64,000 nucleotides of DNA from assembly GCA_020353355.1 (NCBI GenBank), contig CP070694.1, positions 3,801,822 to 3,865,821 of the forward strand, in the 5' to 3' direction. The DNA comes from Desulfobacterales bacterium (GTDB taxonomy: Bacteria > Desulfobacterota > Desulfobacteria > Desulfobacterales > JAHEIW01). Shown here piece by piece: positions 1,124-61,703 of this stretch. Position numbers and translations under genes: made by a program. Within the stretch, counting starts at the first letter, position 1, and the number at the start of each line of letters is the position of its first letter. The notes below the pieces were generated by a model. The model had not been told where the DNA came from. It ran no database searches and saw only the letters and a list, made by a program, of their open reading frames with translations.

Positions 1124-1226
1124 TTTCTATTGTTTAGTTTTTGGTTTTTTGTTTTATGTACAGAAATTTTAAACTATATCTTAACCAAACACTAAACACT
1201 AAATACAAAACACATTTAACAAACAA
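1124..1226. repeat. Paired complementary degenerate heptamer arrays in the livF-SBP spacer
   Basis: Left array 1124-1158 has units tttctat/tgtttag/tttttgg/ttttttg/ttttatg, which are C-free. Right array 1185-1226 has units ccaaaca/ctaaaca/ctaaata/caaaaca/catttaa/caaacaa, which are G-free. Positions 1131-1146 and 1183-1198 are 15/16 complementary. Confidence 0.8.
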
Positions 1227-1240
1227 AAGGAGGTTAAAAA

Positions 1241-2392
1241 ATGAAAATCATTAGATTAGTCGGTTTTATTGTTCTTGCATGCTTATTGGCAACAGGAAGC
1301 GTCTTTGCAGCCGATACCATTAAAATCGGCCTGATGGCACCGCTGACCGGATTCGCCGCTGCCGATGGGGCCAGTGTGGATAATTCTGTAAAACTGGCGC
1401 TTGAGCGGGTCAACAACGAAGGCGGTGTGATAGGCAAAAAAGTTGAGCTCATTGTTTACGATGATCGCGCAGACGGCAAAGAGGCCGTGGCGGTGGCTCG
1501 CAAGCTCATTCAACAGGACCGGGTGATTGGCGTTGTCGCCGGATCTTACAGCACTCCCAGCCGGGCATCGGCCCCGATCTTCCAGGATGAAAAAATTCCC
1601 TTTGTGGCGGCCTATGCGGTTCATCCGGACATTACCAAAGCAGGCAATTATTGCTTCCGCAATGGATTTCTCGGAATGGTGGAAGGCAAATCCGCCGGTT
1701 ATGTTGCCGTTGAAATGGTGAAAGCAAAACGTATTGCCCTGATGACCACGGATAACGATTTTGGTCGCGAAATGGCGGCCGGTTTTAAGGATTATATCGA
1801 AAATCAGGGCAAAGGCGCAAAGATCGTTCTTGAGCAGACCTACCCCTTCCCAGAAAAAGATTACAAACCCTATCTCTCAAAAATCAAAGCGACAGAGGCT
1901 GATCTAATTGTGGTGAGCGGTTACTACTTTCACACGGCACCCATCCTCAAGCAGGCCAGAGAAATGGGAATTGACACCCAGGTTCTCGGTGAAGAAGGCG
2001 CCGACTCACCCAAAACGATAGAGATTGCCGGGAAGGCCTCAGAAGGCTTCATCATGGTAACCAACCTCAATCGGGATGATCCCAGGCCGGAGGTTCAACA
2101 TTTTCTGAAAGAATATGAAAGCCGCTATAAAATTCAGCCGGATATGGTCGGTGCATCAGCCTATGATGCGTTTATGATCATTTGCGAGGCCATTAAACGG
2201 GCCGGCAGCACGGACGGCGAGGCCATCCAGGCTGCCATTGCCGACACCAAAGATTTCAATGCCCTGACCGGTGTCATCAAAGGCTTTAACGACATCGGCG
2301 AGGTTGTCAAAGAAGTCCAGGTTCAGGTGGTAAAAGACGGCCGATTCCGCTATTATGGTGTTGTTACCGACATCAGTCTGATCACACCATAA
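1241..2392 (+). CDS. Periplasmic substrate-binding protein, LivK/LivJ (type I PBP, branched-chain amino acid) family
   Basis: AAGGAGG lies 7 nt upstream of the ATG. There is an N-terminal signal peptide (LLATGSVFAA). The protein is 383 aa with Leu/Ile/Val-binding-protein-like sequence and follows livGF. Confidence 0.85.
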   Translation: MKIIRLVGFIVLACLLATGSVFAADTIKIGLMAPLTGFAAADGASVDNSVKLALERVNNEGGVIGKKVELIVYDDRADGKEAVAVARKLIQQDRVIGVVAGSYSTPSRASAPIFQDEKIPFVAAYAVHPDITKAGNYCFRNGFLGMVEGKSAGYVAVEMVKAKRIALMTTDNDFGREMAAGFKDYIENQGKGAKIVLEQTYPFPEKDYKPYLSKIKATEADLIVVSGYYFHTAPILKQAREMGIDTQVLGEEGADSPKTIEIAGKASEGFIMVTNLNRDDPRPEVQHFLKEYESRYKIQPDMVGASAYDAFMIICEAIKRAGSTDGEAIQAAIADTKDFNALTGVIKGFNDIGEVVKEVQVQVVKDGRFRYYGVVTDISLITP

Positions 2393-2410
2393 CCGACTTG
2401 TTAGCAGCTA

Positions 2411-2449
2411 AGCCCCTCCGATTTTCCAGGGAGGGGCTTTTCTTTTTTT
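2411..2449 (+). terminator. Rho-independent terminator after the SBP gene
   Basis: Stem agcccctcc (2411-2419) pairs with ggaggggct (2430-2438), followed by ttttcttttttt. Confidence 0.8.
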
Positions 2450-2576
2450 GCTAAAGCAATGGGCCTTTCCTGCCGATGATATAAAGGTAGATACGTGTGC
2501 AGGTTGGGGTTAATTTCTTGTGGTTTTATGGATCACCCGATGTGTCGAATAAAATCAGCCGAAGGCCAAGTCCTTT

Positions 2577-4055
2577 ATGCTACTCATTCCACTGACGGAT
2601 AAAATCAGCTGGCGCAATCCACCCATCGTTACGATCTTCCTTATTCTGATCAACTGTTTGGTATACTTCATTTTTCAATTCAACGATAATCAAAAATATT
2701 TCGAGGCCGAGCAGTATTATTTTAATTCCGGGCTGGCCGAAATCGAAATCAAGCGCTATATCAGCTATCGCAGCCCTTCCAATAATGATCTATCGATATA
2801 TCACCCAAACGGCAAATTAGACGAAGACAACGCTTCCCGACAATATCAGGATATGATGAAGGATTATGCATATCTTGAAAAGCTCGTCCATGAGCAAATC
2901 ATTACGCCTCAGGATCCGGAATACTCACCATGGAGGCAATTACGAGATGAGTATGAGCATCGCCGCTCGGATATTGTTGCTTTAAATTACGGATTTATAC
3001 CTGCTAAATCCAAACCGGTTAGCTTTTTGACCCATATGTTTCTGCATGGTGGTTTGGGCCATTTGCTGGGAAATATGATTTTTCTCTGGCTGGTGGGCTG
3101 CATGCTGGAGATGGGCAGCGGCAGAACGTTTTACAGTGCGACATATATTCTTGCCGGTTTGGGCTCGGTGACGCTCTTCTGGCTCATTTATCCCCAGAGC
3201 CCGATTCCATTGGTGGGCGCCTCAGGAGCGATTTCGGGTCTCATGGGGGCCTTTACCGTTTTGTATTGCAAGAAAAAAGTAAAGATCTTCTACTCCCTGG
3301 GATTTTATTTTAATTATTTAAAGGCCCGCGCGATTATCCTTTTGCCGATCTGGTTTGCCAATGAATTCTACCAGCTATTTTTCGGTGATATTAGCAATGT
3401 GGCCTATGTGGCCCATATCGGCGGCTTAATTTCCGGAGCAATCCTGGGATTCATCAACCTGAAGGTTTTGCACTCCTTTAACCCTGATGTTCTCGAACCC
3501 GAACCTGAGGACGACGTATCGCCGATCATTGAAAAAGCATTGCGTCACATCCGACAACTGGACATGGAAAGCGGCGCCCAATTGCTGGAAATGGCCTTGG
3601 CGAAAGACCCCGATCACATCGATGCCATGACATACCTGTTCAATGTCCGTAAAGTCGAACCACAAGATCCGCGCTTTCATGGGATAGCCCAAAAACTATT
3701 GGATCGTCTAACGTCTGAAAACAACCATTATTCGTCAGCAGTAAAAATTTTTGACGATTACGCCAAATTGACCAAGCGACCACAGCTATCCGCAGATCTA
3801 TATTTAAAAATGATTGTGATTTTATCTCGATTAGGTCATCCCGAAAAAGCAGAGCGAATTTTGGCCATGTTTTTAAAACAAAAACCTGATTTACCGGGCA
3901 TTCCAACGGCCCTGCTTAAACTTGCAGCCGGATATCGACAAAAAGGCGTTAATGCCAGATATCAAAGATGCTTAAGAGTTCTCGGCAGCAAGTATCCCAA
4001 TTCCACCGAAGGACAAATCGCCAGACGAAGTCTCACCAAACCGAGCAGTGTTTAG
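2577..4055 (+). CDS. Rhomboid-family intramembrane serine protease with C-terminal TPR-like helical-repeat domain
   Basis: Rhomboid motifs are present: HMFLHGGLGHLLGN, the catalytic GASGAISGLMGA, and the His in AHIGGLISG. The C-terminal ~180 aa form a soluble helical-repeat region. Confidence 0.85.
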   Translation: MLLIPLTDKISWRNPPIVTIFLILINCLVYFIFQFNDNQKYFEAEQYYFNSGLAEIEIKRYISYRSPSNNDLSIYHPNGKLDEDNASRQYQDMMKDYAYLEKLVHEQIITPQDPEYSPWRQLRDEYEHRRSDIVALNYGFIPAKSKPVSFLTHMFLHGGLGHLLGNMIFLWLVGCMLEMGSGRTFYSATYILAGLGSVTLFWLIYPQSPIPLVGASGAISGLMGAFTVLYCKKKVKIFYSLGFYFNYLKARAIILLPIWFANEFYQLFFGDISNVAYVAHIGGLISGAILGFINLKVLHSFNPDVLEPEPEDDVSPIIEKALRHIRQLDMESGAQLLEMALAKDPDHIDAMTYLFNVRKVEPQDPRFHGIAQKLLDRLTSENNHYSSAVKIFDDYAKLTKRPQLSADLYLKMIVILSRLGHPEKAERILAMFLKQKPDLPGIPTALLKLAAGYRQKGVNARYQRCLRVLGSKYPNSTEGQIARRSLTKPSSV

Positions 4056-4232
4056 CTTTAAGCCGTACCCTATTTTGGATCCCCCCTAAAAGCATGCGTC
4101 TTTCTAAGTTAATAGGAAAATTTTCGCGACCTTTTTCCATGTGATCAGCACAATTTGTGTGAAATGTTCTGCCTCAAATGGGAAGAAATTTTTATCGTCT
4201 GATTTGATGATGCGTGATCGCCTATTGTCATG

Positions 4233-5663: not shown

Positions 5664-5989
5664 TTTGAATCATCGCTTCAGTTGTCAAATGTCCACAAAC
5701 ATGCCGAAAATTGTCGGTTCCTTCACACGGGAGTTAGATCCAATTACAATACCCATCTTTTGTATCGGCAAAAAAATCAAAATCTTAAGGTTAAAAATCT
5801 GCGAATCTCTGTATTTTCGCGGGGAAGGGCTGAAGCGTAGGGGATGAACTTGTGGATAATTTGCGGGCTGAGTATGCCAGGGTGGTGGATGCAACCAAAG
5901 GGGCAGTCAAGGTTCAAAAGGCGCCAATATCCTGAACTGCTGATTTACGGAAAAACCGCAGGATGGCGTTTCGGATCAGATACCTACCA

Positions 5990-6220
5990 TCACTCAACAA
6001 TCTCAAGTATGTATCTTTTCCCGGCCTTTCCAGAAGCGGCACTTAATATGGTCCGAATTGCCTGGGCGGTTCTGCCCTGTTTGCCAATGACCTTTCCCAT
6101 ATCCGTCCTTGCCACTCTGATTTCTAAAACCGAAGTATAATCAGCAACAATTTCATTCACTTTTACCTCTTCCGGTTGATCAACGAGTGCTTTGACAATT
6201 TCAGTGACCAGATCCTTCAT
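5990..6220 (-). CDS. KH-domain RNA-binding protein (YlqC/UPF0109 family)
   Basis: 76 aa with the [18 protein letters not shown] GxxG KH motif. AGGAGGTGG lies upstream of the ATG. Confidence 0.85.
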
Positions 6221-7429: not shown

Positions 7430-7433
7430 TTGG

Positions 7434-7461
7434 TCTCCAACCTCAAACCTCCAACCTAAAG
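7434..7461. repeat. Degenerate heptamer array (4 units)
   Basis: Units tctccaa/cctcaaa/cctccaa/cctaaag, G-poor on the plus strand. It fills the 36-nt spacer between the permease stop and the phosphoesterase start. Confidence 0.7.
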
Positions 7462-19015: not shown

Positions 19016-19085
19016 CCAGAATATGGAATCTAGAGATCAGAATCCAGTAGCCAGCGACCAGAATCCGACAACCGGAACCTTGACC
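19016..19085. repeat. Degenerate heptamer array, 10 units, consensus CCAGAAT
   Basis: Units ccagaat/atggaat/ctagaga/tcagaat/ccagtag/ccagcga/ccagaat/ccgacaa/ccggaac/cttgacc, all in one phase. Confidence 0.75.
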
Positions 19086-23941: not shown

Positions 23942-23966
23942 GTTATTTGTTATTCGTTATTCGTTG
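23942..23966. repeat. Tandem heptamer GTTATT(T/C), 3.5 units
   Basis: gttattt/gttattc/gttattc/gttg, immediately upstream of nadE on the minus-strand side. Confidence 0.7.
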
Positions 23967-25326: not shown

Positions 25327-25382
25327 TTTAATCCTTAACCTTTTGCTCCAAGCTCTATGCCCTATGCTTTAGGTCCCAGCGA
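25327..25382. repeat. Degenerate heptamer array (8 units)
   Basis: Units tttaatc/cttaacc/ttttgct/ccaagct/ctatgcc/ctatgct/ttaggtc/ccagcga, in one phase and G-poor. Confidence 0.55.
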
Positions 25383-27791: not shown

Positions 27792-28045
27792 AAACGGTCC
27801 TCCTTTACCAAAGCCGGTGTACACCCTTTTATCTCTGAATTTCAAGAAATTTGCGACAGAATCAGCCAGATGATAATATGTTGGCAGTTTATCTTTTGAC
27901 TTGATGAGATACATATGCCATAGAAAATTTTTTGTATAGTATCATCTTATCAGTAAAATTGGTTGGAATTTAAACCTCATCTCATGGTATTCCGATGGTC
28001 AACCCCATTAACCTCAGGCAAAAATATAGAGAGGGAGACTGGACG

Positions 28046-29497
28046 ATGGATTTAAGAGGTCTTAGCGGAGGGCTTTATCAACCCCTTTCACCGGCAAATA
28101 TCGAAACCATCCACGAGGCGTCACTGACCATTCTGGAAAAAACCGGCATAGCATATGAGTCCGGTCTGGAAGCCACCATTGATTTGCTTGAAAACAATGG
28201 CGCGACTGTAGATAGAAGCCGATCAAGGGTTTTCCTTTCCAGAGACCTGGTCGAAACTCAGGCACAAAAGGCGCCTGAGCGGGTCGTTCTTTACAGTCGG
28301 GACGGAGACTATGACCTGGATCTCACTCAACACCGCGTTTATTTGGGTAGCGGCGGGGCGGCCATCAAAATTATAGATCTTGAAACCGGTGACGCCCGGC
28401 CTTCCACGTTAAACGATCTATATCAACTCGCGCGGTTGGTGGATAACCTGGACAACATCCATTTTTTTCTGCGCCCCTGCATCCCCACAGATATCCCTGA
28501 AGATGCCTATGATGCAAATGTTTTTTTCATGTGCTTAAAAGGCACGAGAAAACATGTCATGGCCGGTGTCAACAATGAAGAAGGCTTTCACACAGTATTG
28601 GATCTTGCTTCAATGCTGGCCGGCACGCACGATAAATTAACTGAAAAACCGTTTATCTCCATCATAGCTTCATTTGCCATCAGCCCCTTGAAACTTTGCA
28701 CGCAATCGACATTGATTATGCAAGCAGCCGTGCGCCAGCAAATTCCGGTAGCGCTTTCAAGTGCTCCGATGGCGGGTTCAACCTCGCCGCTGACAATGGC
28801 CGGCACTTTGGCCCAGCTGCATGCCGAACAGCTGGCCGGAATTGCTATTTGTCAATTAACCCACCCGGGAGCACCGATCCTGTATGGCGGTATACCCGGC
28901 ATGGCCAATTTACGAAACTTGGACTACTTAGGTGGCGCGGTAGAATTCGGCATGATGAATGCAGCCATCCACCAACTCGCTCACCATATCAACATTCCCA
29001 ACTATAACTCATCCGGTCTTTCGTACTCAAAACTCCCGGATGCCCAGGCCGGATGGGAAAAAGCATTAACAACAATTCTGGCGGCCATGGGGGGATCCAA
29101 TTATGTGCATCATGCGGCCGGTATGCTGGAGTCCATGTTGACGGTGGCCTATGAACAATATGTGATGGACGATGAAATTATTGGCATGTGCTGCAAGGTG
29201 CTGAAAGGAATCCAGGTGGATGATGAACATCTCGCCCTTGAGGCCATTGATGCGGTGGGCCCCGGAGGAACTTTTATTACTTCACCTCACACGGTGGCAC
29301 ACATGCACGATGAATTTTTTCAAGGCAACGGAATTTCGGATCAAAACAGTCGAGACATTTGGCAAGAAAAAGGTAAACAAGACGCCAGAACTCGCGCCCG
29401 CGAAATTGCAAAAACCATTCTTGCCCGGGAAGAAAAATCGCATATCGCAATTGACGTCGAACAGGCGATCCGGAAAAAATATGAGATATTGCTTTAA
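28046..29497 (+). CDS. MttB-superfamily methyltransferase, non-pyrrolysine type (quaternary amine:corrinoid methyltransferase candidate)
   Basis: Full-length MttB-family sequence (~480 aa) with no in-frame TAG. GAGGGAGA RBS lies before the ATG at 28046. Confidence 0.8.
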   Translation: MDLRGLSGGLYQPLSPANIETIHEASLTILEKTGIAYESGLEATIDLLENNGATVDRSRSRVFLSRDLVETQAQKAPERVVLYSRDGDYDLDLTQHRVYLGSGGAAIKIIDLETGDARPSTLNDLYQLARLVDNLDNIHFFLRPCIPTDIPEDAYDANVFFMCLKGTRKHVMAGVNNEEGFHTVLDLASMLAGTHDKLTEKPFISIIASFAISPLKLCTQSTLIMQAAVRQQIPVALSSAPMAGSTSPLTMAGTLAQLHAEQLAGIAICQLTHPGAPILYGGIPGMANLRNLDYLGGAVEFGMMNAAIHQLAHHINIPNYNSSGLSYSKLPDAQAGWEKALTTILAAMGGSNYVHHAAGMLESMLTVAYEQYVMDDEIIGMCCKVLKGIQVDDEHLALEAIDAVGPGGTFITSPHTVAHMHDEFFQGNGISDQNSRDIWQEKGKQDARTRAREIAKTILAREEKSHIAIDVEQAIRKKYEILL

Positions 29498-36440: not shown

Positions 36441-39356
36441 CTAAATCCGTATCCGCTTTCCTTGAAGATCATAAAACGGTGTGGGGTTTACACGAGCGTA
36501 GATACGTCGATCGCCGCATCCGTCTTCATAAATTTCCAGACGTGTGCCTTCTTTTGACAAAGGCGCATCGACCAAGGCCAAACCGATCGATTCATTCAAG
36601 GTAACGCTGAAGCGTGAAATACAGATATACCCGCGTATCTTCGTATCCACCACCAGAGACCCGTCTTTCGGGACTTGTCCGGGTTTCTCCAGCTTGAATC
36701 CCACCAGTTTGAGCCGATCTTGCTGGTTTTCAGTCTGTCTCAGGGCAACAGCCCCCACGGTTTTGGCGCCGGGTTTGTCTCGATCCCAAAGGAATCCAAG
36801 TCCGACATCATGCAAGGTCGTGCGCTGTTCAGACTCGGAGCCGATGATAATGTGCCCTTTTTCCATCCTGAGCACGTTCTGGGCTTCCAAGCCGAAATTG
36901 CGGATACCAAATTCTCTTCCGGCCGCTTCCAGCAAGTTCCAAACAGCTGGCATGTAGGAGGCGGGGACATGCAATTCATAGGAGAGTTCGCCCACAAAGC
37001 CCAATCTCATGGCGCGTACAGAAACGTTTGCATTGAGGGTAAACTCACGAGAGCCGGCTTACGCTAAGGCTTCGTTGGAAAGGTAGGTATCAGCGACCTT
37101 TTCGAGGACCCGGAGTGCATTGGGTCCTGCCAGATTGATCACCCCGAAGACATCGGTGAGGTTGACCATATAAAAGTTCCACCCATCATAGCGCGTATGG
37201 TAACGAAACCATTCCACCGTGCTTCCGGCACGGCCGGTGGACGTCGTAAAATAGTAATCGTTTTCAGCGCGTTTTACAATCACGCCATCGTCGATGATAC
37301 ACCCATCCTCATTGCACATCGCAGAGTATTTGATCTTACCCTCGCAAACCCTGGAAATATCGCTGACATACATTCGTTGCAACGCCTTTAACGCATCCGG
37401 TCCCCAAATGCGAAACTTGCCCAAGGTGGAGGCATCCAGCATGCCGACGTTGTTGCGGACATTTTCGATTTCTTCACGGCAACTCAAATCCTGTGAAAAA
37501 TAACGCGCCCGCTGCCAGACCCCGATGCGGCGCATCATACCACCGGCCTTTTCCTGCATGTCATGCACCGGCGTGCGTTTGCACATATCATGCTTGCTTG
37601 CGGCATAGGTCGCTATAAAAGCAGGTACCAACGGCGCGCGAACCGTCGTCGCTTTCGTCTTTACGTCACCATCGGAATTGGTTTGGGCGATAAACAACGG
37701 GAGGTTGTGTCCGGGTATCCCCCCTTGACCGGGACCGGTACCCGCAGCCGTAAAACGCTTAACCAACTCCGGTTCGTCAAAGCCCATCTGGATGGCCTGG
37801 CGAATATTTTTAACGGTTGTATCCTCATCAAAGCAGATAAACGTCTTGCGGCCCTTTAGCGGTGCCGTCACCAATTTGCTTCCTCTTTGCGGCCCCGGAA
37901 GCCGGCTGAGTTCCTCCCGGGCCTCATTCAATTTACTTACATCCTGTCTGCCGCAATCGGCAGCCGCCGAAATTCCAGCCAGGCGTCCGGAGGCTTCAAT
38001 TGAAAGGGAATTGGTTAATCCCAGCAGACGGCCTGCAGCGTGCACCTGCGGGGGTAATTTTATCGGCAAGAAAAATCCGGTGTGATCATCGAAGGACAAT
38101 GTTGCCTGTAGCAGAGAAAGTGGAGCCGTCACCGGAGTCATTCCTGCTGAAGCGACCAAAAGATCACATTCAATATCCCGCTGCTGGCTTCCGTCAATAG
38201 GACTTAACGTTGCTTTTTTGACGGTCTTTCCGTGGGCCTGGACGGCTATCCATCCGCGCAAAAGCGGTATATTCCTTTCAGCCAACCGAGCTACCAGGTA
38301 TGCATCCTGGCCGTCTTCCCGGATATCGGCAAGACAGGGGATTTCAAGGCCCAAATCGAAAAGATCGATGGCCGCTTCTATCCCTAAATCATGTCCGACA
38401 CTGAATACCGCGCGTTTGCCGGGCAGCACTCCGAACGAGTAGGCCAGGCGATGGGCACAACCGATTTGTATGACGCCGGGACGTTCATTGTTTTCAAACA
38501 GCAGGGGCCGCTCGATACAGCCGGTTGCCACGATAATACTCTGCGCTTGAATTTCGATATAGCGTTCATCGAAATGATCTGTTTCAGTTCCTTTCTGGAA
38601 AGCGGTAATAAGGTTGTGATGATAGGCACCGATCATGGCGGTATGGGTGAAAATACGAACATTGGGTGTTTGTTCAAGTTGCTGCACGAGGTCCCGGGCT
38701 CGTCGGTAAAGGGGCACGCCGCCGGCATATTCGACCGTGCGGTAGTCAAAAAAACCTCCCAGCCACGGGCGTGATTCCAGCAGGATGACCCGTAAACCTT
38801 GCCGGGCTGCGGCCAGGGCTGCCGACATGCCGGCGGCACCACCCCCGATGACGCATACATCGGTCTGCGGATAGATCTCATCGTACTTCCCGGGTATGTG
38901 AAAATCGGGCGCGATCTTTCCGAGACCTGCGGCCTTGCGTACCTGTTTTAGTGCAATTGGCCAAATCCACGCCGGCTTGTGCAGGCTGCGGTAGTAAAAT
39001 CCTGCCGGCATCGCCCAATCCAATTTATCGAGAAATCCTAAAAGATCGAATTCAGGTGTGCCTTTCACATTTTGCGCGTTGACGGTCATGCCGTCTCTCA
39101 ACCGTGTCGTTTCAGCACAGACATTGGGTATGCGATCGACTTCCATAAAGGTATTACAGGATTCGCCGTCCAGGCTGTATAGCCCTCGGGGTCGATGATA
39201 TTTCAAGCTTCGCGAAAAAATGCGGATGCCGTTGGCATAAAGGGCGGTGGCGATTGTGTCTCCGCTTACCCCCTGGCATGTTTTGTTCTTATAGGTAAAT
39301 GAAATGGGGTGAGCGGGATTGATCCGCAAGGTGGGCAATTTTTCCAGCCTGTTCAT
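36441..39356 (-). pseudogene. soxA: Sarcosine oxidase alpha subunit, interrupted by one in-frame TAA (37059-37061)
   Basis: ORF 37059..39356 carries the N-terminal Fer2_4-like region, GGGAAGMSAALAAA and the start of the GcvT domain. ORF 36441..37010 carries FVGELSYELHVP and the C-terminal barrel. The two are in the same frame (51 nt apart). The 16 codons between the TAA and the ATG read AGSREFTLNANVSVRA, which continues the SoxA alignment. Confidence 0.85.
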
Positions 39357-40943: not shown

Positions 40944-41158
40944 CCCTTATCACAAACTTCATCAAATCAAAATCATTTTCAAAGTATAGCGGCAGATCGG
41001 AGTCGTCTTGCTGAAAGGCTTTGCGGCGCGCAAATCAGTCAAATCTTGATCAATTTAAAAGAATGTGGCAATAAAGCCTGGGACATTTAAGATTACCAAG
41101 CGAAGCCCTCTTGTTGGGGCTGTCATTAAAAGATGCGCGATTAACGGAGAAAAGTGCT

Positions 41159-42583
41159 ATGGTCGACCGCATGCAAGCATTCACAAAAGATGAACTCCGC
41201 CAGATTCATGATGCCTCAATGGAAATTCTGGAGGATACCGGGGTGAGATTCAACAGCGGCGATGCGCTTGAAATCTTCAAAAAACATGGATTCAAGCTTG
41301 ACGGTACACGGGTTTTCATCACCGAAAACGACGTCAGAAGCGCACTGGAAACCGCACCGGCACGTTTCACGGTCCGTGCCAGAAATGCGGATAACAATGT
41401 TGCCATTGGAGAAGAGGACTTTGTGTTTGTACCCACCAGCGGTGCCCCGAACGTAGCCACATATAAAGGTGTACGCCGGCCGGCAACGCTGGAAGATTAT
41501 CATACATGCTGTCAGTTGGTACAAACCTCCGATCAGTTGGATATGAGCGGGTGGTCAATGGTACAGCCCCTGGATATCCCCCCCCAAGTTGCCCATCTGG
41601 ATATGCTTTTGGCCGATATGGTGATGTGTGATAAAGCCTATATCGGGGCTGCCACCTCCAGACAGGCTGCCCGCGATTGTCTGGAAATGGCCGCGATTGC
41701 CTGGAAAGGAAAGGAAAATTTGAAGCGCCAGCCGGTTATGGCCACCATCGTCAATGCGATGTCACCCCTTAAATATACGGCCGAAGAAGCAGAAACCATT
41801 ATTGACATGGCGCATTTGGGGCAACCGCTGGTGATCACGGATTTAGTGATGGCCGGAGCGAGCGGTCCGGTATCGCTGCCCGGTCTGCTGGCCTTGGCCA
41901 ATGCCGAGATTATCGCTGGACTGGTTCTGGCACAACTGGCATGTCCCGGAACCCCTGTGGTCTACGGTTCCGTTTCGGCTCCGGCGGATATGAGAACCGT
42001 GGTCTCGGCAGTCGGAGCTCCGGAAGCAGTTGTGCTGGCATCGGCGGTCATTCAGTTGGCTAGATTTTACCACTTGCCCTGCCGCACCGGTGGGATGATA
42101 ACCAACGCACACTGTACCGATGCCCAGGCGGCGGCTGAGGGAACCCTCATGATGAGTACGGCCGTGCGCAACGGGGCCAACTTCATCGTTCACGCCTGCG
42201 GTCAGCTGGGCTCCTATATTTCGATGAGCTTTGAAAAATGGCTTGTCGATGAGGAGGTGTGCCGCACGATCCGCAGAATACTTACCGCCATGGATATTAC
42301 GGTCGAATCCATCGATGTCGAAACTATCAAAAGTGTCGGCAGTGACGGCAATTATCTGGTGCATCCGACGACCTTCAATCACTGCCGGAATTTTTACCGG
42401 CCGAACCTATTTACACGCGATGATTTTCAAAATTGGCATGACAGTGGGGCAAAAAGCGTTTCTGAAGTGGCAGCCGAAATGCTGCCCAAGCGCCTGGCTG
42501 AATACACTAAACCGCCGATTGATGAAGGCCTGGAGCAGGTATTAAGAGAATTCGTCAACCGGCGAAAAAAACAGCTTTTGTAA
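41159..42583 (+). CDS. MttB-superfamily methyltransferase, non-pyrrolysine type (second copy)
   Basis: Full-length MttB-family sequence with no in-frame TAG. GGAGA RBS lies 8 nt before the ATG at 41159. It is divergent from soxB. Confidence 0.8.
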   Translation: MVDRMQAFTKDELRQIHDASMEILEDTGVRFNSGDALEIFKKHGFKLDGTRVFITENDVRSALETAPARFTVRARNADNNVAIGEEDFVFVPTSGAPNVATYKGVRRPATLEDYHTCCQLVQTSDQLDMSGWSMVQPLDIPPQVAHLDMLLADMVMCDKAYIGAATSRQAARDCLEMAAIAWKGKENLKRQPVMATIVNAMSPLKYTAEEAETIIDMAHLGQPLVITDLVMAGASGPVSLPGLLALANAEIIAGLVLAQLACPGTPVVYGSVSAPADMRTVVSAVGAPEAVVLASAVIQLARFYHLPCRTGGMITNAHCTDAQAAAEGTLMMSTAVRNGANFIVHACGQLGSYISMSFEKWLVDEEVCRTIRRILTAMDITVESIDVETIKSVGSDGNYLVHPTTFNHCRNFYRPNLFTRDDFQNWHDSGAKSVSEVAAEMLPKRLAEYTKPPIDEGLEQVLREFVNRRKKQLL

Positions 42584-42607: not shown

Positions 42608-44347
42608 CTAATGGTTTAACACCTCTCTTAATTGAGTCGACAGGGTCGATAACGAGAATGGTTTCTGAATAAAGCCATCAGCCCCTGCATTCAAAATTTC
42701 TTGGACGGGACCATCAATCGAATAACCGCTAAATATGATCACCTTTATGTCCGGACGGGCTTCTTTAATGGCTGAAAATATTTTTTTTCCATCCATATCA
42801 GGCAATTTCATATCCAATAATACCAGGTCAAATTTCTCATCAGATTTTTGGGATATCTTGATTGCCTCTTCTCCGGTTTTAGCCACTAACGTTTGGTATC
42901 CCAATCGGCAGAAGATTCTTTGGCTGATATCCAGAACGATATCCTCATCTTCAACCAACAAAATTGTTTCTTTGCCATGTGCCACGGGCGATCCGGCGTC
43001 CTTTACTTGCAATGGGACCTCATCGACTGCAGGCAGATAAATGCTAACCAGGGTTACTTTGCCTAATTCTGAATCTACCTTTATCCAACCGCTGTGGTTT
43101 CTGATAATTCCATATACGGCAGCCATACCGAGCCCACGCCCTTGAAATTTGGTGGTATAAAAGGGTTCGAATAAGCGTTGGCGCGTTGTTTCATCCATAC
43201 CTCTGCCGTTGTCTTATATTTCAAGGGAAACATACCTGCCCGAGCTGAGTTCAGGGGTGTTCTGTGCGATGTTGTCATCGACAAAAACATTTTGGCTCGA
43301 AATTCGGATGTGCCCCTCCCCATCAATGGCCTCAGATGCGTTGGTCAGTATGGCCGCTAACACCATCTGCATCTGTAAGAGATCCGCATCGATAGGCCAC
43401 GTGTCGGTAAGCAAATCCATGTCAACACGAATAGACCGAGCAAACCTATGCTGGATCGTGGGCAGGGTATCTCGTACAAAATTGTTCATGCATATTCTTT
43501 GGGGATGATATTTGCCTCCCTGGGCGTAAGCTAACAGCTGGCTGGTGAGGTTAGACATTCTCTGAATAGATGGCTGGATATATTCGATATCATTAATTAC
43601 TTTCTCATTTTCCGAAAAATCCAATTTTAATAATTCAAGATATCCGACCACTGCCGACAGAGCATTATTGAATTCATGTGCTATTCCACCGGCCAATGTC
43701 GCAATAGCTTTTAATTTTTGTGCCTCCTGCAGCTGTCGTTCATAGCGCAATATCTCTCTGGTCTTTTGATCTACCTCAATTTGGAGCAATTGTCTTTGAT
43801 TTGTTATAAAATTTTGGTACTCAAGACTCTCAAGCGCATTTGCGGCGTTACGGAAAATGATCGACAGGATCTGAAGCGACGCATCCGGTACGCGTGGCAT
43901 TGGATCTGAAAATAAACCGATAAACATTCCTCTAATCTGTGAATCCGTCGCTATGACGTGCAAAAGGAACTTTCTTTTTTGATCCTGCGATAATATAGTG
44001 ACGCCTCTTCTCTCACGTATTGCCCAAGCCATAAACCGTTTTTCGATCATAAACTCGATCTCATCTTTCAAATACGAATGGAGATCTCCAGGTTTACAAA
44101 AGACCAGCACGAGATCAGAATCTTCTTGATTCACCAAACAAAACGCGCGGGCTTCAAATTGAATCAGGCTGTCGATCCGTTTTTCAGTTTCTTCAAATAT
44201 CTGTTCAGGCTGACAATTATCATTTATTTTTTTTTGAAAATCCCCCAGCTTCAGGGCACTCTCAAGTGAATTTTGAATGAATCGCCTGTTTTCCTCTAAC
44301 AACTGTACACGGTTTTCAATGGCTATATCGTTGGCGCTAGACTCCAT
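42608..44347 (-). pseudogene. Hybrid sensor histidine kinase (sensor, HisKA, HATPase_c, receiver) interrupted by one in-frame TAA (43214-43216)
   Basis: The upstream ORF ends at ...GRYVSLEI-TAA. The same frame then continues DNGRGMDETTRQRLFEPFYTTK...GRGLGMAAV plus a receiver domain (LLVEDED, LDMKLPDMDG, KPF). The stop lies inside the HATPase domain, just before its D/G1 box. Confidence 0.85.
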
Positions 44348-45578: not shown

Positions 45579-45730
45579 TCGTATCCCCGCTCATGAATTT
45601 ATGATGATCAAGAAATACAATGATATATTGATTATCGGCAGTTTTCTAAAAAAGATTAGAAGCCATCTCAAAATGTAAAGACAGTCTCCAGGGTTCTATT
45701 GATAAACCAATGGGCATTGAATTTAATTTC

Positions 45731-45759
45731 TTGACATGCCCGTAAACTTTCTTTAAGAA
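45731..45759 (+). promoter_or_regulatory. Putative sigma-70 promoter for the riboswitch-cbiK transcript
   Basis: TTGACA (45731-45736), a 17-nt spacer, then TAAGAA (45754-45759). The -10 element is weak. Confidence 0.3.
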
Positions 45760-45769
45760 AATAGTCGAG

Positions 45770-45960
45770 GTGCATACGCTTAATAGGGAATCCCGTTGAA
45801 TTCGGGAGCGGTCCCGCCGCTGTAACCCCGCCCTTTTCAACGAAAGGGGAACCCGTTTAGTCTTCGAATGCCACTGTGTCGTTTGAGCGAGATGGGAAGG
45901 CTGCTGAACGGGTGGGGGAGCCAGAAGACCTGCCTTGCCAATTCTGCTATAGCCTTGCGG
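45770..45960 (+). promoter_or_regulatory. Cobalamin (B12) riboswitch
   Basis: Conserved core aatAGGGAAtcccgtTGAAtTCgggaGCGGTCCCGCCgCTGTAAcc, GCCACTG...GGGAAGG, and the B12 box gAGCCAGAAGACCTGCC (45918-45934). An intrinsic terminator and then cbiK follow it. Confidence 0.85.
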
Positions 45961-46010
45961 GTGACAGGGGTTGTGGTAATTTAAAAAAAGGGTCAAGAAA
46001 ACTGGGTGCA

Positions 46011-46046
46011 GCCCTTCAAACTGGTGAAGTTTGAAGGGCTTTTTTT
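46011..46046 (+). terminator. Intrinsic terminator (riboswitch expression platform)
   Basis: A perfect 11-bp stem, gcccttcaaac (46011-46021) with gtttgaagggc (46029-46039), followed by 7 T. Confidence 0.85.
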
Positions 46047-46106: not shown

Positions 46107-46985
46107 ATGAAACGAAAAGAATTCTTAATTTCAACGATCCTTTTGCTGATTGTCTGTTTCGCCACCTTGGCCAGTGCGGCCGGCCATGAACACAAAAAAG
46201 CTAAAAAAGTCGGTATCTTACTGGTTGCCTTTGGTTCCACGATTCCGGAGGCACAAGTTTCGTTTGAGAATATTGATCGCAGCGTAAAGGCAGCGTATCC
46301 CGACTTCCCTGTCCGCTGGGCCTACACCTCGTCTATTATCCGCAAAAAACTCGCCAAAATGGGCAAACATTTGGACTCACCCGAAGTTGCGCTGGCCAAA
46401 ATGTTGGAAGAGGGGTTTACCCATGTGGCGGTTCAATCTCTGCACACCATCGGCGGTGAAGAGTTTCACGATCTCAGGCGATCGGTTCATGCGTTTGATT
46501 ATGCCGGCGGATTTCAGCGGATCCTCTTGGGATATCCACTGCTGGCGACCCAAAAGGATATGGAACGCGCCGTGGAGGCCATTTTGGAAAATATTCCGAA
46601 AGCACGAAAGAAAAATGAGGCCGTCGTGTTGATGGGGCATGGAACCCATCACCCCAGCAATGCCTTTTATGCGGCCTTAATGTTCCAGGTTCAGCGCAAA
46701 GATCCCAATGTCTTTATTGGCTGTGTGGACGGATATCCCGAAATTGATGAGATCAAGGAAATGTTGAATGAGAAGAATATCAAAAAAGCTTATTTAATGC
46801 CGTTTATGTCGGTTGCCGGAGACCACGCGCGAAATGATATGGCCGGAGCCGAGGATGACTCCTGGACATCGGTTTTAACTCAGGCCGGAATCGAGAGTGT
46901 TGCGATTCTGAAAGGAACCGCCGAATACGACAGCTTCGTCGAGATATGGGTGGATCATCTCGGCAGCGCACTTTCGCATTTTTAG
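46107..46985 (+). CDS. cbiK: CbiK-type sirohydrochlorin cobaltochelatase homologue with N-terminal signal peptide
   Basis: ILLVAFGST and MGHGTHH motifs typical of CbiK. It has a cleavable-looking leader (LIVCFATLASAAG). AAAGGAGAA RBS is present. Confidence 0.75.
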   Translation: MKRKEFLISTILLLIVCFATLASAAGHEHKKAKKVGILLVAFGSTIPEAQVSFENIDRSVKAAYPDFPVRWAYTSSIIRKKLAKMGKHLDSPEVALAKMLEEGFTHVAVQSLHTIGGEEFHDLRRSVHAFDYAGGFQRILLGYPLLATQKDMERAVEAILENIPKARKKNEAVVLMGHGTHHPSNAFYAALMFQVQRKDPNVFIGCVDGYPEIDEIKEMLNEKNIKKAYLMPFMSVAGDHARNDMAGAEDDSWTSVLTQAGIESVAILKGTAEYDSFVEIWVDHLGSALSHF

Positions 46986-47025: not shown

Positions 47026-47138
47026 CGAATTCGGAATTGGGAATGCGGAATGCGGAATTTCAATCACCTTCCCCTTTCCGATTTCTGCAGTTAAATTTTT
47101 CTTTTCCGAATTCCGACTTCCGAATTCCGCATTCAGGC
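47026..47138. repeat. Paired complementary heptamer arrays GGAATNN x5 and TTCCGNN x10
   Basis: Left array is cgaattc/ggaattg/ggaatgc/ggaatgc/ggaattt (47026-47060). Right array runs in one phase from 47069 to 47138: ttcccct/ttccgat/.../ttccgaa/ttccgac/ttccgaa/ttccgca/ttcaggc. Positions 47041-47051 are perfectly complementary to 47124-47134. Confidence 0.8.
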
Positions 47139-48784: not shown

Positions 48785-48914
48785 AGGTTTCGGGTGTCAG
48801 GTACAATTAGGTTTCAGATACCATCTAGTGTGTTTCTGACACCTGACACCTGAAACCTACTTAATCCTGAAAACCCGCGACTCGTAACACGAACCCGTAA
48901 CGCGCAACTCGATT
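48785..48914. repeat. Heptamer arrays forming an 18-bp stem, then an extended in-phase array
   Basis: aggtttc/gggtgtc/aggtaca (48785-48805) pairs with gacacct/gacacct/gaaacct (48838-48858). Positions 48785-48802 pair with 48841-48858 (17 Watson-Crick pairs plus 1 G-U). The array continues in phase to about 48914 (actcgta/acacgaa/cccgtaa...). Confidence 0.8.
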
Positions 48915-51640: not shown

Positions 51641-51677
51641 CCGGATAACCAATTCAGGATAGAGGGAGGTACATAAA

Positions 51678-52776
51678 ATGTCACTTGAACTCAAACACAC
51701 ATTAGATGAGCTGCAAACTAAATTAGATCACTTAAGGGCCTATCTTTGACATAGACGGCAAAGAAAAAAGACTTGCAGAAATCGAGCAAATAATTGCCAA
51801 AGATGGATTTTGGGATAATCCCGAAAAAACGAAACCGATTTTAAAAGAACGCACATCGATTTCGAGCAGGATTGATGATTTTAATAAACTTGTAAATGCG
51901 GTCGAAGAAAGCGAGGTTTTGCTAGATCTTGCCATCGAAGAATCCGATGAAGAGACGCTGCAAGAAGTTTCTCACCAAGTAAGCGATATCGAAGAAAAAA
52001 TCGACACGCTTTCCCTTGACCTCATGCTGGACGGCGAGGATGATGATAAAAATGCCATCGTGTCGATCAATGCCGGCGCCGGCGGTACTGAGGCACAGGA
52101 TTGGGCTGAGATGCTGTTTAGAATGTACGCCCGCTGGGTTGAACGTAAAGGATACCGGTTTGAATTGATCGATTTTCAGCCCGGAGAAGAGGCCGGCATC
52201 AAAAGTGTCACCTTCACGGCAAACGGTGAAAATGCCTACGGTTATTTGAAATCCGAAATCGGTGTTCACCGACTGGTGCGAATTTCACCGTTTGATGCCA
52301 GCCGAAAACGCCATACCTCGTTTGCATCGGTGTTTGTCTATCCTGAACTGGAGGACAAAATTGTTATCGATATCGAAGAAAAAGATTTAAGAATAGATAC
52401 ATTTAGAGCCAGCGGAGCCGGCGGTCAACACGTGAACAAAACCAGCAGCGCGGTTCGAATCACCCACCTTCCGACCGGAATTGTCGTGCAGTGTCAGCAG
52501 GAAAAGTCCCAACACCGCAATCGAGACCTGGCCATGAAAGTGCTGAAAGCCAGATTGTATCAGCACGAAAAGAAAAAACAAGACGAAAAACTTCAGGATA
52601 TGCACGACAGCAAGGACGAAATCGCCTGGGGAAGTCAGATTCGCTCTTATGTGCTGCATCCTTACCAGATGGTAAAAGACCACCGCATCAATCTCGAGGT
52701 GGGTAATGTAAACAGTGTCCTCGACGGCGACATTGACCGGTTTATTGAAGGAGTATTGCTCTCTAAAGAAAAATAG
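51678..52776 (+). CDS. prfB: Peptide chain release factor 2, with programmed +1 ribosomal frameshift at CTT TGA C (51744-51750)
   Basis: Frame 0 runs from ATG 51678 to the in-frame TGA at 51747-51749, preceded by AGGGCC TAT CTT. The +1 frame from GAC 51748 continues to 52776 and contains the SPF and GGQ motifs. Confidence 0.95.
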
Positions 52777-52838
52777 CTGTAAGAGGAGCGCCCTTTCAAG
52801 GCTTAAGGGTCGGCCTTTCAGGCCTTGAGCAGCGTTCC

Positions 52839-52915
52839 TTCGGAACTTGAGGTTAGAGGCAACCATTAAAATTCGTTGTGCCTCTGACCTCCAATCTCGA
52901 ACCTCAAACGCCTTA
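52839..52915. repeat. Complementary heptamer arrays and hairpin in the prfB-thiE spacer
   Basis: Left units ttcggaa/cttgagg/ttagagg; right units cctctga/cctccaa/tctcgaa/cctcaaa/cgcctta. Positions 52849-52861 pair with 52879-52891 (12 Watson-Crick pairs plus 1 G-U). Confidence 0.75.
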
Positions 52916-56597: not shown

Positions 56598-56712
56598 TGA
56601 AATCTTTACCTGTAGCTTAATTCTTCAATATTATACTGTCAGTTTTCGTCCCAGAAACGCGCAATTTTGCGCAAGGTCAAGGAAATCAAGGATTATTTTA
56701 AATTGAAAACCC

Positions 56713-58134: not shown

Positions 58135-58269
58135 TGTTATCCTCCGCTCATAAGATCTTATGGAAATTGCTCAACAACCGGTACATCATTGTTTATTCGG
58201 ATTTCGAATTTTTGGCCGACACAACAGCTTCCAGAGTAGACACAACCGATGATATTGTCTGTTCAAGCA

Positions 58270-59100: not shown

Positions 59101-59264
59101 TTTATCCCTCCAACCATTAACTCCAACTATTTTTACCACCGGCCTGGTCCCTCAGCTAACCGATGAATTATTCAGCCAAAGATGAAATAATCTCAAAAGA
59201 ATTGTTTTAAATCAAGGTAAAAATGTTGATATTCATAACTTGAACTGCTAAGGCGATGCTTGAA

Positions 59265-59376
59265 TCTGGCGGCTGGTCACTGGTAACTCGATACTCGATG
59301 CTCGATAATCCAAAATCGAAGGGCTGGTCGTTGGAAACTTGAAACGGGAGACCCGAAACTGGAAACTGATAACGGT
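59265..59376. repeat. 16 consecutive degenerate heptamers in a single phase
   Basis: Units tctggcg/gctggtc/actggta/actcgat/actcgat/gctcgat/aatccaa/aatcgaa/gggctgg/tcgttgg/aaacttg/aaacggg/agacccg/aaactgg/aaactga/taacggt. It sits in the divergent nfnA/tatD spacer. Confidence 0.8.
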
Positions 59377-59419
59377 CTATTTCAAAAGTCCGACAAATCA
59401 GTTTGAATTTTGAAAAAAC

Positions 59420-60202
59420 ATGAAGCTTTTTGACAGCCACTGCCATCTGGATGACAAACTATATTACAGAGACCTTGGAAGGGTATTGAAACGTGCCAAC
59501 AATGCCGGTGTTGTATGCATGCTGACCGTAGGGGTAAATCATAAAGGCTCGTCCCGAGCAGTCTCCCTGGCCGAATCGCAAACCGGAATTTTTGCATCAG
59601 TCGGTGTTCATCCCCACTATGCCAGATATTGTGGTAAAGCCACCATCGATTTTCTCATTAAGCTTGGCGCAAACCCTAGAGTTAAGGCATGGGGAGAAAT
59701 CGGACTGGATTTCAATCGCATGTACTCACCGCGGGAGGATCAAGAAAAATGGTTTATCAGGCAACTGCAAGCAGCCGCCAAGCTTCAGCTGCCGGTAATT
59801 TTCCATGAACGCGACAGCAACGGCCGTTTTTTGGAAATCCTGAAAAACCACGAGAACACGATAAGCAAGGGGGTCGTCCACTGTTTTAGCGGCAATCCGC
59901 AAGAATTAGAGCGCTATCTTAATTTTGGCTTATATATCGGCATCACCGGGATTCTGACCATGACGCAGCGTGGTGCAAGCCTGCGCAAAATGGTTCCGGA
60001 CATACCGGCAGATCGTCTGGTGGTTGAAACCGATGCTCCCTACCTGACGCCCGCGCCGGAAAAAAACCACACCCGCCGCAACGAACCCGACTTTGTCAAA
60101 TCCGTCCTATTGAAGCTTGCCAAGGTTCGTCGGCAAGATCCCGAGGAACTGGCTGATATCATATGGGACAATACGTGCAGATTATACAACCTTGAACCCT
60201 AA
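59420..60202 (+). CDS. tatD: TatD-family metal-dependent hydrolase/DNase
   Basis: DSHCHLD, GEIGLD, HERD, VHCFSG and ETDAPYL motifs. Confidence 0.9.
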   Translation: MKLFDSHCHLDDKLYYRDLGRVLKRANNAGVVCMLTVGVNHKGSSRAVSLAESQTGIFASVGVHPHYARYCGKATIDFLIKLGANPRVKAWGEIGLDFNRMYSPREDQEKWFIRQLQAAAKLQLPVIFHERDSNGRFLEILKNHENTISKGVVHCFSGNPQELERYLNFGLYIGITGILTMTQRGASLRKMVPDIPADRLVVETDAPYLTPAPEKNHTRRNEPDFVKSVLLKLAKVRRQDPEELADIIWDNTCRLYNLEP

Positions 60203-60219
60203 TCTTGGTCGCCATTAAT

Positions 60220-60362
60220 GGTTTCAGGTGACAAGTTTCAGAGGACAGAGGTCAGACGACAGAAGACAGATAAAAAACTGCGAGATGAAGCGACCTATCT
60301 GTCATCTGTTTTCTGTTCTCTGTCATCTGTTTTCTGACACCTGAACACCGACACCTGAAACC
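60220..60362. repeat. 143-nt imperfect hairpin built from complementary heptamer arrays between convergent genes
   Basis: Left units: ggtttca/ggtgaca/agtttca/gaggaca/gaggtca/gacgaca/gaagaca/gataaaa. Right units: tctgtca/tctgttt/tctgttc/tctgtca/tctgttt/tctgaca/cctgaac/accgaca/cctgaaa. The outer 11 nt (60220-60230 with 60352-60362) are perfectly complementary. The inner segment 60259-60272 pairs with 60296-60309 at 13/14. Confidence 0.85.
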
Positions 60363-61553
60363 TTATTTAGACATGAGGTGGGTGACGGCCTGCTCGAGCC
60401 CATCAATGGTCAGTTCAAACATCGGAAATATCTGGCGTATCTCACCGATGGTACGGGTATAATCCCACATGGAGGCAGATACTGGATTCAGCCAAACGCA
60501 GTGAGGAAAAGTTTCGGCCAGGAATTGGAGACACTCAATGCTCGGCACTCCGCTGCGTTCTTCCAGATGGATAGAGCCATCCGCTGCCCACAGCTCATAC
60601 GGCGCCATGCTGGCATCTCCCACAACAACCAGACGGGTTTCAGGATCGAAACGGGCAAACTCTTCAATCCGCAGCGGTTTTTTAAACCGCGCTGGATCTC
60701 CCCACAGATTGGAATAAATGGTGTTATGAAAAAAGTAGGTTTTTAGGTCTTTAAATTGAGCCCGGGCATAATCAAAAAGGGTTTGCACAACAGCAATATA
60801 AGGGTCCATGGACCAGCCGCCATTATCAATAGCAAGGATAACTTTCAGCCGGTCTTTCAAGGCCCGCTCGAAGACGATTTCGATCTCGCCACCATTTCGC
60901 ATGGTCTCATAAATGGTGGCATCGATATTAACTTGATCTTTGGGGCCCGCGGGCACTAAATTGCGCAACCGTTTCAAGGCTTCACCGACCAGCGCATGGG
61001 TAAGGGGTCCGCTCAAAGAATAGTCTTTATAGCGCCGGTCCATCGCCACTTTCACAGCCGACCTGCCGCGGGATACACCCCCGACTCGCATGCCGCCCGG
61101 ATGATGGCCTGAATGGCCTACCGGCGAAAAACCGCCAGTACCAATCCACTTGCTGCCTCCGTGATGCGCCTCGGTTTGCTCTTTCAAACGCTCTTTAAAA
61201 TATTCGATCAGCTCTTGCGGTGTAAGCTTCGCTAAAGCCGACGCATCCACCCCCAGTAATTCCGATAGCCCCTCGGGATTTTGCAGCCAGGACTCCAGCA
61301 GTACTTTGGCCAGCTCATCAATTTCAAATCCTTCATGATCCGGCAACTCGGCTCCTTGAAAATGATGGGCAAAGACTTGATCAAAAAGATCAAAATAGCG
61401 TTCGCTTTTCACTAAAATCGCCCGGGAAGCCGTATAAAAATCTTCTAAAGAATTGACCAATCCCTTGCTGAGTGCTTTCTGGAGAGTCAGAAACGATGTG
61501 GGGCTGACCGGAATCCCGTTGTCTTTTAATTTATAAAAAAAATCGACAAACAT
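60363..61553 (-). CDS. VWA-domain protein (CoxE-like partner of MoxR-type ATPases)
   Basis: 396 aa with the conserved N-terminus FVDFFYKLKDNGIPVS and a C-terminal VWA-like region. It lies immediately downstream of an AAA+ MoxR-like gene. Confidence 0.7.
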   Translation of the reverse strand: MFVDFFYKLKDNGIPVSPTSFLTLQKALSKGLVNSLEDFYTASRAILVKSERYFDLFDQVFAHHFQGAELPDHEGFEIDELAKVLLESWLQNPEGLSELLGVDASALAKLTPQELIEYFKERLKEQTEAHHGGSKWIGTGGFSPVGHSGHHPGGMRVGGVSRGRSAVKVAMDRRYKDYSLSGPLTHALVGEALKRLRNLVPAGPKDQVNIDATIYETMRNGGEIEIVFERALKDRLKVILAIDNGGWSMDPYIAVVQTLFDYARAQFKDLKTYFFHNTIYSNLWGDPARFKKPLRIEEFARFDPETRLVVVGDASMAPYELWAADGSIHLEERSGVPSIECLQFLAETFPHCVWLNPVSASMWDYTRTIGEIRQIFPMFELTIDGLEQAVTHLMSK

Positions 61554-61604
61554 AGGTTCACTTCGTTCACCGGTTTTGGATCGCTGCGCTAGAGGAGCGC
61601 TACG

Positions 61605-61703
61605 CTTTAGGATTGAGGCAAAAATTCAGGATTAGAGGCCATGTGCGGTCAAAAAATAATATTTTTTCGCCTCAAACCTCAGACCTCTAACCTTCAACTT
61701 TAT
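61605..61703. repeat. Complementary heptamer arrays in the MoxR-VWA spacer
   Basis: Left units are ctttagg/attgagg...ttagagg. Right units are gcctcaa/acctcag/acctcta/accttca/actttat. It shares the cctcaaac word with 7441-7448 and 52902-52909. Confidence 0.7.

Follow-up and report, generated by a model that had tools for sequence, protein, structure and literature searches.

Heptanucleotide repeat arrays in the intergenic DNA of one uncultured Desulfobacterales clade: whole-unit variation, paired hairpins and a possible role as RNA stem-loops

Why should the spacers between ordinary genes carry runs of short repeats seven nucleotides long, with units that differ from one locus to the next? The question is raised by a 64,000-nt stretch of a Desulfobacterales genome (assembly GCA_020353355.1, contig CP070694.1, positions 3,801,822 to 3,865,821, forward strand), referred to here as the window, in which an original prediction made from the letters alone had placed degenerate heptanucleotide arrays in eleven intergenic regions. 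The same prediction guessed at a Desulfobacterota-like genome, and rightly so: the vWA-domain protein encoded at 60363-61553 is 100% identical to JSV83_18200 of a 5.3-Mb Desulfobacterales bacterium metagenome-assembled genome (MAG). The genes flanking the arrays are ordinary housekeeping and metabolic genes. We report that the arrays are a new Desulfobacterota representative of the heptanucleotide class comprising short tandemly repeated repetitive (STRR) elements and long simple sequence repeats (LSSR), together with dispersed hairpins resembling repetitive extragenic palindromic (REP) sequences. On the reading that we prefer, and hold with moderate confidence, they are hypervariable arrays of microsatellite type, found almost only in the non-coding DNA of one uncultured Desulfobacterales clade, whose hairpins would serve as RNA stem-loops. 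Restriction to a clade, change by whole units between strains, a fixed polarity with the G-rich arm first and the dispersal of one hairpin family all go beyond what had been predicted.

The period of seven stands far above chance. A crude gene map built from the longest non-overlapping open reading frames (ORFs) left 7.8 kb of the window as intergenic DNA, in which autocorrelation, taken as base identity per lag and compared with 100 dinucleotide-preserving shuffles, was in excess at lag 7 (z=6.4), lag 14 (z=4.3) and lag 21 (z=6.0), with no other lag above z=2.2. Coding DNA of the window gave a period-3 signal only. Tandem Repeats Finder, run on the whole window, returned period 7 in 16 of 34 rows, at the loci that had been predicted, and a strict sliding scan that required 16 or more matches out of 21 at a given lag found ten regions at lag 7, all of them intergenic, and zero at lags 4-6 and 8-12. 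Taken singly, all eleven loci exceed shuffles of their own bases at lag 7, where 0.43-0.89 of positions match, compared with 0.24-0.40 after shuffling (p<=0.0005 for every locus). A chance or compositional artefact can be ruled out, as the excess is specific to lag 7 and persists against dinucleotide shuffles. All eleven predicted loci thus stand, as does the remark that no such arrays had been noticed inside coding regions.

The same preference for non-coding DNA is seen on a larger scale. In 86 sequences (the window and 85 further loci, denoted below, like the metagenome contigs, by L numbers), 83 arrays lie in 198 kb of non-coding and 11 in 1,077 kb of ORF sequence, an enrichment of about 41-fold, and the 94 arrays have 62 distinct consensus units. 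Arrays had been said to occur in every kind of spacer alike, which agrees with their presence in 9.0% of co-directional, 7.3% of convergent and 8.2% of divergent spacers; the three classes are about equal, and 3' ends are not favoured. Of the single arrays, 15 are G-rich and 5 C-rich when read on the sense strand. Recurrence of some words at distant loci was likewise borne out in the window, where CCTCNRACCTC has 12 matches against 4.6 expected and CACCTGAAACC has 5 against 1.0 expected, the latter at 48786-48857 and 60220-60362. At the gathering threshold, Rfam matched only a cobalamin riboswitch and PYLIS_3 in the window, neither of them at any array.

An array followed by an approximately complementary one had been expected at six or seven loci, and six were found. 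In the spacer that separates the genes for an ABC ATPase and a periplasmic binding protein, a T/G-rich 5' arm of about five TTTDGTT units (1124-1161) faces a G-free 3' arm of about six AAACACT-type units (1182-1226), both picked up by the scans and folding with a z-score of -2.8 against dinucleotide shuffles; the second arm ends about 3 nt ahead of the AAGGAGG ribosome-binding site of gene 1241-2392, and its stretch 1182-1216 is without any G, an instance of the strand asymmetry that had been claimed. The spacer between the convergent cbiK-like and beta-CASP genes holds five G-rich GGAATKC units (47026-47061) as 5' arm and five complementary, C-rich TTCCGAA units (47101-47138), also seen in the scans, as 3' arm (z=-3.0). 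The hairpin at 48785-48858 (z=-5.3) is of the GGTKTCR ... CTGAMAC family, with a degenerate run continuing on its 3' side to 48914, and shares its word family with the long composite hairpin at 60220-60362 (z=-7.1), which abuts the vWA stop codon and is built of outer arms GGTTTCAGGTG.../...CACCTGAAACC and inner arms CAGAnnA/TnnTCTG. At 52839-52915, TTGAGGTTAGAGGC pairs with GCCTCTGACCTC (z=-4.4), and additional CCTCNRA units extend from there to the start of thiE. The sixth hairpin, a KTNGAGG arm with a CCTCNRA arm at 61605-61703 (z=-2.7), lies in the spacer between the AAA-ATPase and vWA genes.

The remaining five of the eleven loci are single arrays or pairs of arrays that are not complementary. 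Four CCTCMAA units detected by the scans (7434-7461) fill a 36-nt spacer between two minus-strand genes and, on the sense strand, read as GGAGG/TGAGG repeats directly upstream of the start codon. About ten degenerate, unpaired CCAGAAT-type units (19016-19085) fall under the threshold of the strict scan, with a lag-7 match of 0.52 vs 0.26 (p<0.0005). Three and a half GTTATTY units at 23942-23966, found by the scans, adjoin the start of the NAD synthase gene in a divergent spacer, and a convergent spacer holds a degenerate C-rich array of CTATGCY and similar units (25327-25382; lag-7 match 0.53 vs 0.27), within which a relaxed scan matched 25343-25374. In the divergent spacer upstream of tatD, CTGGTMA/ACTCGAT units are followed by GGAAACT units (59265-59376).

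A comparison of orthologous spacers, which the original prediction had proposed, revealed arrays in relatives and whole-unit changes between strains. Six contigs with vWA proteins 99% identical to that of the window were compared with it. The hairpin in the AAA-vWA spacer (61605-61703) is longer by 7 nt in one strain; the left arm of the 60220-60362 hairpin is shorter by 14 nt in one strain and by 21 nt in another; and of the two arrays upstream of tatD (59265-59376), one has gained and the other has lost 7 nt. Three further indels in the compared spacers, of 1 nt each, all lie outside arrays, and an array-free spacer of 271 nt (62581-62851) has substitutions but zero indels in the six strains. 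Since the array indels are whole multiples of 7 nt and the array-free spacer has none, we conclude that units are gained and lost by slipped-strand mispairing. We also observed that short-read MAG contigs of the window's species stop at or beside heptamer hairpins (L089, 44 nt past the vWA gene, as well as L087, L090 and L091); the arrays therefore fragment assemblies.

How far the arrays extend beyond this species was determined in the syntenic region of relatives at 92%, 84% and 83% protein identity and in 80 GTDB species representatives. Density in relatives is similar to that of the window, with its 11 loci in 64 kb, and falls with distance: lag-7 arrays number 2.4 per 10 kb where the vWA proteins are at least 90% identical, 1.9 at 79-90%, 0.65 at 76-79% and 0.22 at 70-76%, the last value being equal to the background at other lags. 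Among the genomes with arrays is that of 'Olavius sp. associated proteobacterium Delta 1' (L011), a symbiont for which meta-omics data exist. No arrays were present in the sampled loci of Desulfosarcina widdelii, Desulfonema and Desulfosudis, and Desulfatitalea had a single weak match in two of its three loci. The arrays are therefore not confined to the window, and they are restricted to one clade of uncultured Desulfobacterales.

The spacer between the AAA-ATPase and vWA genes, which form an operon, records the arrival of arrays at a single site. Followed through about 80 species, it measures -1 to 30 nt in most of the distant relatives and 96-396 nt in most of the close ones, where heptamer arrays make up the greater part of it and usually form a hairpin; arrays have thus inflated a spacer of 0-30 nt to 100-400 nt. 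The units are GGGCATA/TATGCYC in seven loci (L003, L009, L010, L012, L013, L017 and L020), AGCTCAW/TGAGCT in L005 and L007, and KTNGAGG/CCTCNRA in the window and L045. As the unit family differs by subgroup, the spacer was colonised and then recolonised. Wholesale exchange is visible between L001 and L003, whose compared flanks, upstream over more than 1.1 kb and downstream over about 100 nt, are 100% identical: the entire spacer and the last ~10 AAA codons are replaced (L001 9850-10000, L003 2190-2290), with a GGGCATA hairpin in one and TGCCTAAAA-type repeats of about 9 nt in the other. Either a cassette was replaced by recombination or one assembly is chimeric.

Two further sequence features of this spacer deserve mention. 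A second repeat type stands beside the heptamer hairpins, with units of ~16-23 nt made of YTNGAGGAGCGC and a short GC hairpin (Tandem Repeats Finder period 16); it is found at 61574-61612 and 52783-52850 of the window and is common to the AAA-vWA spacers of the window, L004 and L045. Directly before the vWA start (61554-61570), a motif AAGCGAAGCTT / GAACGAAGTGAAC is conserved across many species and has no clear Shine-Dalgarno sequence; it includes GCGAAGC, a mini-hairpin sequence of very high stability.

On the other side of the vWA gene, the base of the hairpin towards tatD, GGTTTCAGGTGTCAG...CTGACACCTGAAACC, begins directly after the stop codon. It is essentially unchanged in the window, L007 and L015 and has close variants in L005 and L019, and in each of these five species, at 82-84% protein identity, the interior of the hairpin has been replaced. 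The vWA-tatD spacer is only 8-31 nt long in several more distant relatives. The tatD gene itself (59420-60202) is convergent with vWA in the window and in nearly all relatives having both genes adjacent. The 92% relative (L001-L003; 11334-12110 in L001) has it inverted, with CTGGTCA arrays on either side followed by a complementary GACCAG-type array, and this may be a single-gene inversion mediated by arrays.

The outer arms of the vWA-tatD hairpin belong to a family, (GGTKTCA)n...(TGAMACC)n, that has travelled widely. A metagenome scan for CTGACACCTGAAACC found at least 120 contigs; the counts that follow are among the 120 matches listed. At least 84 of them sit inside heptamer arrays, and none is in the vWA/tatD or beta-CASP context of the window. 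The matched contigs, 601 kb in all, contain 259 arrays at lag 7 vs 2-51 at other lags. Both arms occur within 400 nt on at least 17 contigs, with loops of 5 to ~360 nt that at times hold other heptamer arrays, and elements are nested within loops in L118, L187 and L202. One contig, L122, aligns with the window across the whole 60220-60362 hairpin, from the outer arms through the inner CAGAnnA arrays to the loop, and has unrelated flanks. No consistent target-site duplication was found in any of 17 elements, and a scan of 61 window genes revealed no transposase, integrase, Y1 transposase or REP-associated tyrosine transposase (RAYT). The closest named relatives of the gene beside the L139 hairpin are from the Olavius Delta-1 symbiont (72%) and a 7.2-Mb Desulfobacterales MAG (70%), so that the metagenome contigs are of the same clade as the window. 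This hairpin family is therefore scattered over many genomic settings that are unrelated to one another, much like REP and REPIN elements, and the arrays are not products of local slippage only.

Cyanobacteria have been known to carry heptamer arrays since about 1990, and STRR1, STRR2 and STRR3 have the consensus heptamers CCCCAGT, TTGGTCA and CAACAGT. None of the 62 consensus units found here matches these; the CTGGTCA of L001 is one base from TTGGTCA. The proposal that STRRs are the nearest analogue is well founded nonetheless: cyanobacterial STRRs are 7-bp tandem repeats, intergenic and hairpin-capable, as between hupS and hupL, with roles in transcript stability, translational coupling or termination proposed and none established (PMC2670836). 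Our arrays are like those of heterocystous cyanobacteria (Nostoc, Anabaena, Calothrix) in the 7-nt unit, the short tandem intergenic arrangement, the several unit types per genome and the pairing of some arrays into intergenic hairpins, and unlike them in their host, a Desulfobacterales MAG of the Desulfobacterota. The G-arm-first polarity and the dispersal of composite hairpins are features of the Desulfobacterales arrays. In a Nostoc preprint, deletion of heptamer repeats upstream of recO had regulatory effects.

Among LSSRs, tandem repeats of 5-11-nt units longer than chance and of sporadic phylogenetic distribution, heptanucleotides are the commonest; according to the summary in PMC4679880, Mrazek et al. 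(2007) put forward a polymerase contact length of 7 nt. The slippage origin that the summary ascribes to them is shared by the Desulfobacterales arrays, in which whole-unit indels between strains reveal slippage; the units here are degenerate rather than near-perfect, unlike LSSRs, and many of the arrays form inverted pairs. As far as that summary goes (PMC4679880), the repeat-rich genomes listed include no Desulfobacterota. What places our arrays in the general STRR/LSSR class is the 7-nt unit, the intergenic position and the change of copy number by whole units. A similar system is the TAACTGA direct repeats of marine Beggiatoaceae, also found in cyanobacteria and Bacteroidetes, for which translational regulation was proposed (MacGregor 2015, PMC4679880). 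These too are intergenic heptamer tandems of uncultured sediment bacteria, and some of our arrays likewise lie directly upstream of start codons (7434-7461, 1182-1226). The TAACTGA system, however, has one dominant unit, mostly forward at start codons, with one indirect repeat among 170 sets, whereas the Desulfobacterales arrays have dozens of units, occupy every spacer type and are frequently paired with a complement.

The REP, BIME and REPIN elements of Proteobacteria often lie at 3' ends or between the genes of an operon and stabilise upstream mRNA. The dispersed hairpins resemble them in being extragenic, dispersed and hairpin-forming without target-site duplications, as documented by at least 84 contexts, at least 17 of them with both arms. 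REP arms, though, are palindromic units that stay fixed, at ~20-40 nt, and are moved by RAYT, while the arms here are slippery heptamer arrays of variable length, and no RAYT is present among the window genes. Miniature inverted-repeat transposable elements (MITEs) are matched in the inverted arms alone, as none of the 17 elements has a consistent target-site duplication. Our literature search found no report of heptanucleotide arrays under names beginning with Desulfobacter. The phenomenon has clear precedents; its function is what we infer.

We suggest that the hairpins could work as RNA stem-loops, at the 3' ends of transcripts and between cistrons, and might in this way influence the stability of the mRNA, its processing or pausing. 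Each of the six window hairpins has its G-rich arm ahead of its C-rich arm, whichever strand is read. Of the array spacers rich in hairpins, 22 have more G(5')-C(3') than C-G pairs and 3 have fewer (126 vs 100 in array-free spacers), and the sense strand folds better than the antisense in 27 of 35 co-directional array spacers and worse in 8 (Wilcoxon p=0.015, mean -2.9 kcal/mol), compared with 149 better and 138 worse among control spacers (p=0.43); these statistics count orthologous spacers several times and the samples are not fully independent. The folding advantage is a suggestive hint at the RNA level, because G-U pairing in RNA would produce it (e.g. GGGCATA opposite TATGCTC). The polarity may be kept because Rho would find a loading tract if an arm rich in C and poor in G were the first to emerge. 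New arms could arise by slippage together with arm-to-arm copying within a quasi-palindrome, and by a further route of dispersal.

Besides this partial dependence of the samples, several observations weigh against an RNA role of this kind. Divergent spacers have no 3' end and yet carry arrays about as often as the others, so that a single function tied to position would not suit every array. Between strains, indels affect one arm with no compensation in the opposite one. In the GGGCATA/TATGCYC hairpin of seven species, 2 of 20 pairs are compensatory, on an alignment that the repetitive arms make ambiguous. No mobilising enzyme was seen among the 61 genes scanned. The hairpins are not canonical intrinsic terminators either: they have no T-tail and none was called by a terminator scan that does call such terminators elsewhere in the window, e.g. 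at 46010-46040.

A neutral mutational origin is a serious rival to this reading, if in our view a distinctly less probable one. The arrays would then be a functionless by-product of lineage-specific 7-nt slippage and of template switching in quasi-palindromes, persisting where they do no harm. Units that vary from locus to locus and, within one spacer, from species to species would be expected on these grounds, as would the uncompensated indels, the equal frequency in all spacer classes and the replacement of a whole spacer between otherwise identical contigs; the polymerase-slippage idea of Mrazek, as far as it is summarised, agrees. Such an origin does not readily account for a vWA-tatD hairpin base conserved across species at 82-84% protein identity, for hairpins that recur in the same spacer with different sequences, for the sense-strand folding advantage with its fixed arm polarity, or for one word family that keeps its sequence in at least 84 contexts. 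A bolder extension, to which we give about the same low probability as to the by-product account, would have the hairpins be self-expanding dispersed elements, 'slippery REPINs', with microsatellite arms that grow by slippage and arm copying, spread across loci and genomes and are held G-first by a co-transcriptional constraint such as Rho avoidance. If cyanobacterial STRRs and Beggiatoaceae heptamers shared this polarity and dispersal, a single mechanism would lie behind the preference for seven in distant phyla.

We regard two other explanations as unlikely. Arrays might be periodic sites, with a GG/CC step every 7 nt, for a nucleic-acid-binding protein of the S1, Csp or CsrA type that regulates translation or transcription. 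Many G-rich units do begin with GG or GA (GGTTTCA, GGAATKC, GAGGTYW, GGGCATA), the 7434-7461 array amounts to tandem Shine-Dalgarno-like GGAGG/TGAGG just before a start codon, single arrays are G-rich on the sense strand 15 times vs 5, and the same was proposed for heptamers beside start codons (MacGregor 2015, PMC4679880). It is hard, however, to fit 62 distinct units among 94 arrays to one sequence-specific binder; many arrays are found on the downstream side of genes or in spacers of the convergent type, and no candidate protein was found. Movement by a dedicated transposase such as RAYT, with MITE or REP/REPIN elements whose terminal inverted repeats happen to be heptamer arrays, has equally little probability. 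It would explain the occurrence of one hairpin family in many unrelated contexts, the whole composite element shared by the window and L122 between unrelated flanks, the nesting in loops and the insertion into otherwise tight operon spacers. Yet 0 of 17 elements have a consistent target-site duplication, no transposase, integrase or Y1 transposase is encoded among the 61 window genes, units are locus-specific in most arrays and the arms, unlike those of REPs, are not themselves palindromic.

Whatever the balance between selection for RNA stem-loops and mutation, the presence of this anatomy (units of 7 nt, a location between genes, arms paired into hairpins and rapid turnover) in a second lineage, unrelated to the first, offers an independent comparison for the cyanobacterial puzzle. 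The unit polymorphism at strain level, a spacer traceable over ~80 species from 0 to 400 nt and a family that has dispersed with its arms conserved make it possible to test why the unit is seven, whether mutation or selection prevails and how the arrays spread. In practical terms, arrays inflate the intergenic distances used in operon prediction.

Some other genes of the window merit comment. The cobalamin riboswitch (Rfam RF00174, 86 bits) lies at 45751-45951 on the plus strand, upstream of the gene for a CbiK-like cobalt chelatase (46107-46985), and a minus-strand ORF overlapping it (45646-45996) is probably not a gene. Two plus-strand genes encode MttB-family methyltransferases (27995-29497 and 41111-42583). 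The first contains the PYLIS_3 match (29018-29117) and has no in-frame TAG, and therefore appears to be a non-pyrrolysine member. An in-frame TAA splits each of two minus-strand genes, 36441-37010 / 37059-39356 and 42608-43198 / 43214-44347, one being sarcosine-oxidase-alpha/GCV_T-like and the other a hybrid histidine kinase; as both stops are TAA, readthrough with selenocysteine or pyrrolysine is ruled out, and pseudogenes, true splits or sequence errors are possible. Finally, an ORF for an RF-2-type release factor (51641-52776, plus strand) starts at position 58 of the PCRF profile, with an apparent spacer of 278 nt upstream, a start consistent with the programmed +1 frameshift usual in prfB.

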